Shown here piece after piece: positions 61,158-64,000 of a DNA stretch of 64,000 bases. How positions within the stretch are numbered: position 1 is the first letter of the stretch; the number at the start of each line of letters is the position of its first letter. The stretch comes from an uncultured Candidatus Saccharibacteria bacterium (lineage in GTDB: Bacteria > Patescibacteriota > UBA1384 > XYA2-FULL-43-10 > 1-14-0-10-43-13), in NCBI GenBank assembly GCA_964406145.1, contig CAYOQP010000004.1, positions 1,924-65,923 on the forward strand, given 5' to 3'. A program made the position numbers and the translations under genes. A model generated the notes under the pieces. The model saw only the letters and a list, made by a program, of their open reading frames with translations, had not been told where the DNA came from and searched no databases.

Positions 61158-64000
61158 CTACACCACAATACTGACAAGTTTTTTTGGAACAACAATAGTC
61201 TTTAGAATTTTCCGATCTTTTATTATGTCGGTGACTTTTTCGGACGAAAGGGCTATTTTTTTCATTTCTTCTTCTGATATTTGGGCATCGACAGAAATCT
61301 TATCTCTGACTTTGCCATTTATCTGGATGACTATCTCTATTTTTTCCGCAATCAGATACTTTTTATCTGGCCCTGGCCACACTGATTCACTAATATCTTT
61401 TTTGCTGTCCAGGCTATACCAAATTTCAGAAGCAATATGAGGTGCCGCAACAAACAACAAAGTTAGAAAAATTTTATAAGATTCTTCCGAAATCACCCCA
61501 GCTTTTTCAATAGCATTATTTAACTCCATAAGTTTAGAAACGACAGTGTTCATCCGAAAGTTCTCAAGATCTTCAGTTATGCCAACAATAGATTGATTTA
61601 TCTTCACAAGAAGATCTTTTGTATCTGGCTTATTATTTACTAGATCTTGGTTCTTCCAGACTCGTTTTAAAAACCGGTGAACTCCTTGAACGCCAGCAGT
61701 GCTCCATGCCGATTCTTGGTCATAGGGACCAATAAACATTATATAGCTTCTTAGTGTATCAGCGCCAAATTGACTAGCGATGTCGTCCGGATTGATAACA
61801 TTGCCAAATGATTTGCTCATTTTACGGCCATCGGGGCCGAGAATTATACCGTGAGCAATTCTTTTCGCATATGGTTCTGGTGTCGGAACGACTCCTAGAT
61901 CAAACAAAAATTTATGCCAAAAACGAGAATATAGTAAATGAAGGGTGGTGTGTTCCATGCCACCATTATAAAAATCAACCGGCATCCAATATTTTAGGGA
62001 ATTGTGAGAAGCAAACTCCTTGTCATTTTGCGAATCGCAGTAACGTAAAAAGTACCAGCTTGATCCGGCCCAGTTGGGCATCGTGTCCGTTTCGCGTCTT
62101 GCGTAGCCAGCACATTTAGGACAAGTTGTATTGACCCAATCTGTTATTTTGGCGAGAGGGGATTCACCAGTGTCTGTTGGCTCGTAATTCTCTACATTTG
62201 GCAAGGTAACTGGCAATTGATCTTCAGGAATGGGCACGACACCACATTGATCGCAATGGACGACAGGAATGGGCTCACCCCAATAGTGCTGTCGGGAAAA
62301 TATCCAGTCTCTGAGCTTATAATTAACACTGAAATCACCAGCCCGGATAGTTTTTAATTTCTCAGTTATTTTGTCCTTACCCTCCTTGGAGGTAAGTCCG
62401 TCAAATTCGCCGGAATTTGTCATTGTGCCGTAATCGGTAAAAGCGTAATTACCCGAAAAATACCATTCAAAGCCGATCTTATTGTCGGGAAATGTACATT
62501 TTTCTAGACACTCTTTTTCTGTCAGCCAGATTGCTTTATGCCTTTTGAGCTCCTCATCTGCAACATGTTCTGGTTTTTCGTCGAGAAGTTCGCAGTAGAT
62601 AAAATTGCCATATCTTAATCTCTTTACATTTTTATGTGGTGCAAAAAAGTGCGATTTGACAGTGACGCCGATTTTCTCGATTGCCTTCACTTTGTATCCA
62701 GTTTCCTCAAAGACCTCTCTTTCGGCCGTATCAAACATCTCTTCATTTTCTTCGATGCCCCCGATGACCGGCACCGTCCACTTAAATTCCGGCCAATCAA
62801 GCATCAAAAACTTTCCATCTGATTTGCGTTTTACTATTGCAACAATGGTGTGTCTTTCTTCTTCGCCTTCTTTTATCTCGCCAAATTCTGGAATAATCAC
62901 TTCCTTAATTGGAATTTCATGTTTCTTGGCAAATTCCCAGTCCCGACTATCATGAGCGGGTACAGCCATGATAGCACCAGTGCCGTAATTAGCAAGGACA
63001 TAGTCAGCAACATAGATATCAACGTTTTCATTATTGATCGGATTAACGGCGTAGACGCCATAGAGCTTGACCCCAGACTTATCCTTAGCAAGATCGGTTC
63101 GCTCTAGATCTGACTTATTCTTGGCTTTCTGAACATATTTGGCCACTTCGTCAAAATTTTGAATATGGTGGCCTAATTTTTCAACCAACGGATGTTCTGG
63201 TGCTAAGACTACATAAGTACAACCAAATAGAGTATCGGCACGGGTAGTAAATACTTCGATCTCTTCGTCTTTGACTGTGCCGCTGCGACTCTTAACTTGA
63301 AATCGAATGTTGGCGCCGACACTTTTGCCAATCCAATTAATCTGCTGAGTCTTTATCTTATCAAGATAATCAACTGTCTCGAGACCAGTAATTAATTTGT
63401 CAGCATATGAAGTGATGCGTAGCATCCACTGCTTTTGATTGCGTTTGCTTGCTTGTGTACCACAACGTTCACAATTGCCAGCCACGACTTCTTCGTTGGC
63501 GAGAATTGTCTTACATGAAGGGCACCAATTGACAGGCATCTCAGCCTGAAAAGCCAATCTAGGAGTGGTCTTGTCATCATCAGAAACTTCGACTAATTTA
63601 TCATCAACGATTGCGTGTTTGTAAAACTGCAAAAATATCCATTGAGTCCACTTGTAGTAATTTGGATCTGTAGTGTTAACTTCGCGGCTCCAATCGAAGC
63701 AATAGCCCAGAGACTGCATTTGCTTTTTGAATGTAGCAACATTGTCCTCTGTGGCTTTTTGCGGCTTAATCTTGTTTCTAATTGCATAATTTTCAGTTGG
63801 AAGACCAAAAGCATCCCAGCCCATGGGATACATAACATTGTATCCTTGAAGTCTTTTCATTCTACAATAGGCATCAGAGGCGCCATAGCCCATGCAGTGA
63901 CCCACATGAAGCCCCGCCCCCGAAGGATAGGGGAATTCGACTAAATGATAGTGCTTGGGCTTATCGGAGCTGTCTTTGGAAAATCCGTATTTTTGCTCAG
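61158..64000 (-). CDS. leuS: leucine--tRNA ligase, 5'-partial (N-terminus beyond window end), carrying an inserted Nudix hydrolase domain
   Basis: The frame stays open to the window edge (…[28 protein letters not shown]). Also seen: ZN-1 CPSCKT...CERCG, the editing domain, KMSKS (KMSKSFGNV) and the anticodon-binding and C-terminal domains. Residues ~338-497 (nt 62415-62894) form a Nudix fold with the box [23 protein letters not shown]. Confidence 0.93.
   Translation of the reverse strand, partial: [946 protein letters not shown]

Follow-up and report, generated by a model that had tools for sequence, protein, structure and literature searches.

A Nudix hydrolase domain nested in the CP1 editing domain of a patescibacterial leucyl-tRNA synthetase and its subfamily tied to aminoacyl-tRNA synthetases

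We analysed a 64,000-nt stretch of DNA (hereafter, the window) from an uncultured Candidatus Saccharibacteria bacterium (assembly GCA_964406145.1, contig CAYOQP010000004.1, positions 1,924 to 65,923). The leucyl-tRNA synthetase (LeuRS, also LeuS; gene leuS) encoded near its end has a complete Nudix hydrolase domain nested within connective polypeptide 1 (CP1), the editing domain, with all catalytic-box residues in place, and the domain is predicted to be active. It represents a separate Nudix subfamily, found in Patescibacteria and DPANN archaea, whose members are nearly always linked to an aminoacyl-tRNA synthetase. Few enzymes have been studied as thoroughly as these synthetases, and CP1 of LeuRS is both a drug target and a model of proofreading. 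The nesting of a second hydrolase in CP1 is seen in hundreds of species; as many as three copies may be present, and there are parallels in prolyl-tRNA synthetase (ProRS) and beside valS, the gene for valyl-tRNA synthetase (ValRS). It offers a testable handle on the fate of the adenylate side-products of synthetases and on the way in which ultra-small symbionts pack accessory enzymes into essential proteins.

Nudix and LeuS are each known families; what is new is the nesting of one within the other, its recurrence and the family-level coupling to synthetases. A full-text search covering few subscription journals found no paper on a Nudix domain in or beside LeuRS or another synthetase in these lineages. 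To this extent, the view of the first-pass annotation of this DNA that the architecture had not been described still stands. The architecture is not unique, however, as it is common in LeuS of Patescibacteria, where public protein sets show it as precomputed Pfam hits.

The Nudix domain within CP1

The leuS frame, on the minus strand, is uninterrupted from beyond the end of the window (position 64000) to its stop codon (61158-61160). The translated protein belongs to the bacterial leucine--tRNA ligases, scoring 925.7 bits against TIGR00396 (leuS_bact; cut-off 548.4). A 965-aa protein from an independent assembly (P0006) is 100% identical to it, and comparison of the two indicates that the window end cuts off only the 19 N-terminal residues. 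An assembly chimera or a frameshift is excluded, because the open reading frame (ORF) is single, the same protein occurs in a second assembly and 78 homologues also carry the insert.

The first-pass annotation had proposed a complete in-frame Nudix domain with an intact box at 62415-62894. A profile comparison bears out the domain: this segment alone matches the Pfam NUDIX model (PF00293) with 47.1 bits (E 3e-12), and the match is retained in the whole protein (Table 1). The box lies exactly where it had been placed. An AlphaFold2 model of the domain alone (pLDDT 95.4) has the Nudix fold, which by itself accounts for the entire insert; the full-length protein was modelled with a pLDDT of 89.9 and a pTM of 0.79. 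The boundary, on the other hand, needs correction. The real insert is 150 aa long, and the last 30 nt of the proposed segment encode the beginning of the LeuRS return strand (AFTDYG...), which aligns to Thermus thermophilus LeuRS from residue 376 on and is also found in relatives lacking the insert (non-carriers).

The insert takes the place of a 12-residue hairpin loop that in non-carriers connects the strand ending in IPIKEVI to the strand beginning with AFTDYG, its junctions being VI/IPEF...GNY/AFTDYG. The canonical loop is thus considerably shorter than the approximately 35 residues assumed at first, and measures 21 residues even between the anchors chosen then. Nor does the domain lie between CP1 and the catalytic core, as had been thought. 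It splits PF13603, the Pfam model of the LeuRS editing domain (profile positions 2-148 precede the insert, the remainder follows it), and its site corresponds to the loop 363/376 of T. thermophilus LeuRS, in the last hairpin of CP1.

Residues of the Nudix box are strongly conserved. Across 83 family members, G45, G46, E51, R59, E60, E63, E64 and G66 are kept at 96-100%, while overall identity is only 26-53% (70% for one close relative). Such conservation amid low overall identity makes an active enzyme the natural reading, and we infer that the domain is a hydrolase tethered to the synthetase. Outside the box, R14, K28, W34, W39, F83, K88, R92 and W123 are also conserved, with R14, K88, R92 and W123 near-invariant. 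Several of these residues belong to a subfamily-specific motif, SHF(F/Y)AxHKxxxR, which is common to the LeuS-nested, free-standing and ProRS-nested forms described below. The motif includes the aromatic residues F83 and F/Y84, 16-17 residues past the box, and the basic residues K88 (62631-62633) and R92 (62619-62621).

The HVGH and KMSKS signatures of the synthetic site and both CP1 editing motifs are intact in the window. In the latter, T270, T271, R272, D274 and T275 of the threonine-rich motif and H368, D369, R371 and D372 of the motif containing the universally conserved Asp are invariant in 120/120 LeuS relatives, carriers and non-carriers alike. The insert seems to break the automatic naming of LeuS. 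The four carrier clusters with a name from NCBI are listed as 'class I tRNA ligase family protein', and a fifth, an older record, as 'Leucine--tRNA ligase', whereas non-carriers are named 'leucine--tRNA ligase'. Since both the carrier in the window and P0015 exceed 900 bits on TIGR00396, this exposes an annotation gap: carriers are under-named despite a clear LeuS score.

Table 1. Features of leuS, its nested Nudix domain and the downstream genes in the window
Feature	Position	Strand	Basis
leuS, bacterial-type leucine--tRNA ligase, partial CDS	61158..64000	minus	ORF, translation, TIGR00396
Nested Nudix insert, 150 aa (P0006 residues 388-537), class A	62445..62894	minus	alignment with non-carrier orthologues
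Pfam PF00293 NUDIX match (partial-protein residues 382-504)	62487..62855	minus	42.5 bits, cut-off 21.1, E 8e-11
Nudix box, G-x5-E-x7-R-E-U-x-E-E-x-G-U	62694..62762	minus	all consensus residues present
Subfamily-specific motif	62619..62654	minus	conservation table, 83 members
HIGH-type signature HVGH, synthetic site of LeuS	63897..63908	minus	
KMSKS signature, synthetic site of LeuS	61809..61823	minus	
CP1 threonine-rich editing motif TTRADT	63231..63248	minus	
CP1 editing-site motif AVPAHDSRD with universally conserved Asp	62940..62966	minus	
LeuRS return strand, part of CP1 and not of the insert	62394..62444	minus	T. thermophilus LeuRS alignment
Downstream syntenic block rpmF-nusB-rnc	59449..60800	minus	Pfam scan
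rpmF	60618-60800	minus	Pfam scan
nusB	60144-60599	minus	Pfam scan
rnc	59449-60144	minus	Pfam scan

An Rfam scan of the whole 64-kb window at the gathering threshold returned no RNA families, whether tRNA, rRNA or riboswitch. A PADLOC search for defence systems matched neither the insert nor full-length LeuS; a free-standing member of the subfamily (P0004) gave only a 16-bit match, and a defence system was dismissed.

Distribution of the subfamily and its link to synthetases

With the insert as query, phmmer was run exhaustively over 1.84 billion representative proteins and produced 328 matches. LeuS proteins, whole or in fragments, account for most of the top 150; the remaining 50 or so are short proteins that have no LeuS segment and are either free-standing or fragmentary. 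A synthetase gene adjoins seven of the eight free-standing members examined. The Nudix gene may immediately follow leuS, either of the archaeal type (L001/L002, L092/L093) or of the bacterial type but with only 39-40% identity to that of the window (L003, L004), or it may immediately precede leuS (P0160, with a 2-nt gap, and L072). At another locus (L082) it occupies positions 4929-5441, 300 nt upstream of valS (5741-7858; 743 bits on NF004349, cut-off 704). The subfamily is not restricted to class I synthetases either: five clusters of class II ProRS from DPANN archaea (P0273, P0275-P0278; 641-674 aa) have a member nested between the anticodon-binding and C-terminal domains, and about 115 close ProRS relatives have no such insert. 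This recurrent link with the genes of LeuRS, ValRS and ProRS supports a role tied to synthetase chemistry.

Three of the five ProRS-nested copies have a degenerate box, in which the first Glu is gone and Arg is replaced with Lys or Asn. Such copies would be expected if the domain were a nucleotide-binding sensor regulating LeuRS, or a structural or interaction module. Yet the metal-binding box, needless for pure binding, is kept at 96-100% in LeuS-nested and free-standing members, and there are free-standing members that consist of this single domain. We therefore regard a non-catalytic role as very improbable.

The neighbourhood of the Nudix gene and scpB is preceded by an archaeal-type leuS in some cases (L001/L092) and by a bacterial-type leuS in others (L003/L004), which suggests that the synthetase was displaced in place while its Nudix neighbour stayed. 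Separately, precomputed Pfam hits indicate that an intein bearing a LAGLIDADG endonuclease interrupts an RNase HII gene at one of these loci (L001, 8662-10737).

The nested form is widespread. We compared the window protein with the LeuS clusters closest to it, 120 in all, whose best local alignments have 55-82% identity. In 78 of them an insert of 137-177 aa lies at exactly the same site, with an intact Nudix box in nearly all; a search of relatives had been suggested along with the original prediction. In a GTDB survey of one genome per species, at least 291 confirmed stretches encode the family; 80 loci were kept, and in about 74 of these the Nudix domain is nested in LeuS ORFs. Carriers were found in Paceibacteria, Berkelbacteria, Falkowbacteria, Buchananbacteria, Nomurabacteria, Taylorbacteria, Moraniibacteria and other Patescibacteria. 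Among the carriers are also a few metagenome-assembled genomes (MAGs) labelled Pacearchaeota or Woesearchaeota (L014, L016, L029, L035, L080), which have bacterial-type LeuS with a nested Nudix domain, owing either to inter-domain transfer between the Candidate Phyla Radiation (CPR) and DPANN or to mis-binning.

The presence of the insert is patchy even among close relatives. The gene order leuS-rpmF-nusB-rnc is common to the window, to non-carriers (L005, L007, L009) and to other carriers (L010, L011). Carrier and non-carrier genes are therefore orthologues, and paralogy as the source of the pattern is excluded. In three pairs (P0068/P0122, P0024/P0085 and P0032/P0095) the backbones are 88-92% identical, yet one partner has the domain and the other lacks it entirely; the closest of them, P0068/P0122 (91.6%), comes from one sample. 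At the DNA level, two carrier/non-carrier pairs (88-89%) have clean junctions with no mechanistic scar. In most non-carriers the loop has the same length of 12 residues, and so resembles one ancestral allele rather than random deletion scars. We infer that the patchy presence may be due to allele exchange by recombination or to repeated precise loss. Compensation by a neighbouring gene was also considered and rejected, as no adjacent free-standing Nudix gene is present at the three non-carrier loci L005, L007 and L009.

Sporadic presence among near-identical orthologues, two of them from one sample, multiple insertion sites, tandem copies and a DUF559 endonuclease domain in the same loop of one relative might all be expected of a selfish or mobile element inserted in frame, akin to an intein or a repeat element, or of an assembly chimera, either without benefit to the host. 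However, Pfam detects no Hint/intein match, the junctions have no Cys/Ser/Thr...His-Asn residues, no flanking or terminal repeats were found at them, and GC content and GC content at third codon positions (GC3) of the insert equal those of the rest of leuS. In addition, the catalytic residues are under strong constraint and the same architecture is present in many independent assemblies. An intein or mobile element is excluded on these grounds, and a selfish origin of any kind is extremely improbable.

The inserts fall into two classes, class A of 157-160 aa, which includes that of the window, and class B of 165-168 aa. The two are only 30-39% identical, yet can be hosted by LeuS backbones that are 80% identical (P0008/P0010). 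Class A inserts have 45-48% identity to free-standing Nudix proteins, which makes them as close to these as to most other class A inserts. LeuS proteins with two or three Nudix copies also exist, the extra ones being at other loops. CP1 has a copy at its beginning in P0126, P0127, P0130 and others, P0152 has a tandem at the canonical site, and in P0221 and P0266 a copy is placed in the catalytic core, within the Zn-knuckle region; a Taylorbacteria LeuS ORF of 1735 aa (L069) has three.

Nudix is not the only domain nested in LeuS of these lineages. Other relatives (P0132, aa 640-795; P0194, aa 601-766; P0145, aa 26-338; P0183, aa 984-1167; P0269, aa 366-468) have a HAD-like hydrolase, a serine or alpha/beta hydrolase (one or two copies), Ham1/ITPase (197 bits) or a restriction-endonuclease-like DUF559 domain, the last occupying the very loop that holds Nudix in the window. 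In Patescibacteria, LeuRS seems to serve as a scaffold for insertions in general. The insert may also have travelled together with part of its host. A MAG named 'Candidatus Pelethosoma merdigallinarum' encodes a free-standing 276-aa protein (L039, 4689-5519) composed of the C-terminal half of LeuRS CP1, a class B Nudix domain and the CP1 return strand, with the conserved editing Asp replaced (PAHIEKD), and a Bacilli MAG (L041) encodes a similar one. Proteins of this type look like an excised CP1-Nudix unit transferred into Bacilli.

Predicted substrate class and role

The nearest characterised structures appear to be the diadenosine polyphosphatase Rv2985, the diadenosine hexaphosphate (Ap6A) hydrolase Ndx1, diadenosine tetraphosphate (Ap4A) hydrolases from Aquifex and human, and DIPP/DDP1. 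Close behind are decapping and MutT-type enzymes, and the neighbours include the decapping effectors AvrM14 and oomycete WY-Nudix, RppH, MutT1 and the pyrophosphatase YmfB. The Nudix subgroup that hydrolyses diadenosine polyphosphates (ApnA) is reportedly marked by a Tyr some 16-18 residues past the box, an observation credited to Dunn and co-workers in 1999. Of the 83 members, 75 have Phe and 8 have Tyr at position +16; at +17, the counts are 41 for Phe, 31 for Tyr and 10 for His, with Phe predominating at both positions. Such an aromatic pair, together with the invariant basic residues, would fit a stacked base and a long phosphate chain. ADP-ribose pyrophosphatases, by contrast, have a Pro 15-16 residues past the box. 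This Pro is absent from the 83 members, which have His or another residue at +15 and Phe at +16; likewise, the insert remains far below the cut-offs of the models for the ADP-ribose subgroup, TIGR00052 (YffH/AdpP; 23.7 bits, cut-off 79.55) and NudE (18 bits, cut-off 169).

Synthetases form dinucleoside polyphosphates (Ap3-5N) out of aminoacyl-adenylate and ATP or another nucleoside triphosphate (NTP), as reviewed in PMC7705103. We propose that the nested domain is a tethered but independent pyrophosphohydrolase, putatively clearing such ApnN-type by-products of aminoacyl-adenylate chemistry, and give this reading a probability of roughly 45%. In the proposed mechanism, enzyme-bound aminoacyl-AMP would be attacked by ATP or another NTP, and the resulting dinucleoside polyphosphates, most likely Ap4A, Ap3A or Ap4N, would be cleaved by the nested Nudix domain to usable mononucleotides right beside their source. 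The domain would be a module outside tRNA proofreading and accessory to the synthetase, close relatives managing without it. The invariance of both editing motifs in carriers and non-carriers speaks for such independence from editing. Since the domain is found in more than one loop, in synthetases of both classes and also as the product of a neighbouring gene, exact geometry seems unimportant.

The first-pass annotation had instead suggested, besides alarmone control, an extra proofreading module that hydrolyses released, possibly non-cognate, aminoacyl-adenylates (pre-transfer editing or adenylate clearance). LeuRS, ValRS and ProRS are error-prone synthetases that edit; hence all three partners of the subfamily share this property, and its strong link to synthetase genes is likewise in line with the suggestion. 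On the other hand, aminoacyl-AMP is a mixed anhydride of a nucleoside monophosphate and does not contain the nucleoside-diphosphate-X linkage cleaved by Nudix enzymes, which makes it a chemically awkward substrate. To our knowledge, the enzymes that hydrolyse aminoacyl-AMP are HIT proteins. Moreover, close relatives lack the insert, and the editing site of CP1 is complete whether or not the insert is present. This intact site and the chemistry of aminoacyl-AMP make clearance of ApnN more plausible than editing proper, and we consider a proofreading module quite improbable.

The location in CP1, which in LeuRS binds the tRNA 3' end, raises another alternative, an RNA-end enzyme. It could remove 5'-triphosphate, NAD or Np4A caps in the manner of RppH or NudC, or act on a modified tRNA 3' end such as pyrophosphorylated CCA. 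LeuRS, ValRS and ProRS all bind tRNA, and the decapping effectors and RppH are among the structural neighbours. However, the insert scores only 23.3 bits against the NCBIfam RppH model (cut-off 116), and no RNA-binding extension is evident. Nudix domains also reside in distant loops, in the C-terminal region of ProRS and in a separate protein, so that precise positioning of the domain on tRNA seems unnecessary. Taken together, these observations make an RNA-end enzyme improbable.

Several points weigh against clearance of ApnN. First, none of the curated NCBIfam Nudix equivalogs reaches its cut-off with the insert, including, in addition to the models named above, NudB (26.1 bits, cut-off 103) and MutT (15.9 bits, cut-off 148). 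Second, LeuRS, ValRS and ProRS hold no special place in ApnN synthesis, which does not account for the bias to these enzymes. Third, close orthologues have neither the insert nor an adjacent Nudix gene, so the function must be dispensable or supplied elsewhere. Fourth, one free-standing member (L066) has no synthetase neighbour, and the leuS-Nudix-scpB loci share synteny and therefore are not independent observations. Finally, Ham1/ITPase, HAD and serine hydrolase domains are nested in LeuS of the same lineage, which fits hitch-hiking on a scaffold.

Such hitch-hiking is the main rival reading. It would make the domain a nucleotide pyrophosphatase for house-cleaning in general, MutT-like or NTP-sanitising, that has no substrate link to aminoacylation and is present in LeuRS only because connective-polypeptide loops tolerate inserts. 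In ultra-small cells whose genomes are streamlined, nesting would ensure that the domain is expressed together with an essential protein. Besides the other nested domains, DUF559 among them, the scenario draws on the one to three Nudix copies in several different loops, on the patchy presence among near-identical orthologues, and on MutT1 and NTP pyrophosphatases such as YmfB being among the top structural matches. What it leaves unexplained is why free-standing members are found beside leuS of three deep lineages and beside valS, why the same subfamily is nested in class II ProRS, and why the subfamily is scarcely found outside the synthetase context. We thus consider hitch-hiking rather unlikely.

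A broader formulation is that Patescibacteria and DPANN archaea have an unrecognised synthetase accessory, a Nudix family dedicated to LeuRS, ValRS and ProRS and coupled to them physically or genetically, which destroys a reactive or signalling nucleotide arising at the synthetic site, be it ApnN or, unexpectedly, the aminoacyl-adenylate itself; we put this forward as a possible, if doubtful, generalisation. Should it hold, synthetase quality control in these metabolically minimal cells would have a further clean-up layer, new to science.

Comparison with known systems

All modules of bacterial-type LeuRS with known structure (T. thermophilus 1H3N/2BYT and Escherichia coli 4AQ7), including the anticodon-binding and C-terminal domains, can be aligned with the window LeuS, which matches T. 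thermophilus LeuRS (1h3n) with 664 bits in phmmer. The difference is the 150-aa Nudix domain at T. thermophilus 363/376, a site at which none of the solved LeuRS structures searched contains a domain. Neither is there a curated NCBIfam model for LeuS with Nudix. A class Ia synthetase with an extra catalytic domain does have a precedent in NCBIfam NF040702 (isoleucine--tRNA ligase, N-acetyltransferase domain-containing), although the extra domain there is a GNAT acetyltransferase rather than Nudix and the synthetase is a different one. Inteins in essential genes are similar in their sporadic presence among close orthologues and in their conserved essential host gene. Unlike them, the LeuS insert has no Hint fold, splicing junction residues or homing endonuclease, and a conserved enzyme is predicted to stay in the mature protein.

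Known Nudix ApnA hydrolases (Mycobacterium tuberculosis Rv2985/MutT1 9CXX, T. thermophilus Ndx1 1VC8, Aquifex aq_158 3I7U, human NUDT2 and DIPP/DDP1) are only 13-23% identical to the insert. They are free-standing, whereas the present family, for which ApnN-type substrates are putative, is nested in a synthetase or encoded beside one. Another relevant case is a fusion of a HIGH-superfamily nucleotidyltransferase (NTase) with Nudix, mentioned in PMC7824862. In NadM-Nudix (NMN adenylyltransferase/ADP-ribose pyrophosphatase), an adenylyl-transferring enzyme of the HIGH superfamily is covalently joined to a Nudix domain that degrades a related adenine dinucleotide. However, that fusion is end-to-end, its Nudix domain is of the ADP-ribose/NAD type with other motifs, and the pathway is unrelated. 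A parallel in terms of the proposed logic is the axis of lysyl-tRNA synthetase (LysRS), Ap4A and NUDT2 (or ApaH), in which the synthetase makes Ap4A from its aminoacyl-adenylate and the Ap4A is then broken down by a hydrolase of the Nudix or another type (PMC7705103). In that axis the two activities reside in separate, unlinked proteins; in the system described here they would be united in one polypeptide or operon, with LeuRS, ValRS or ProRS as the partner.

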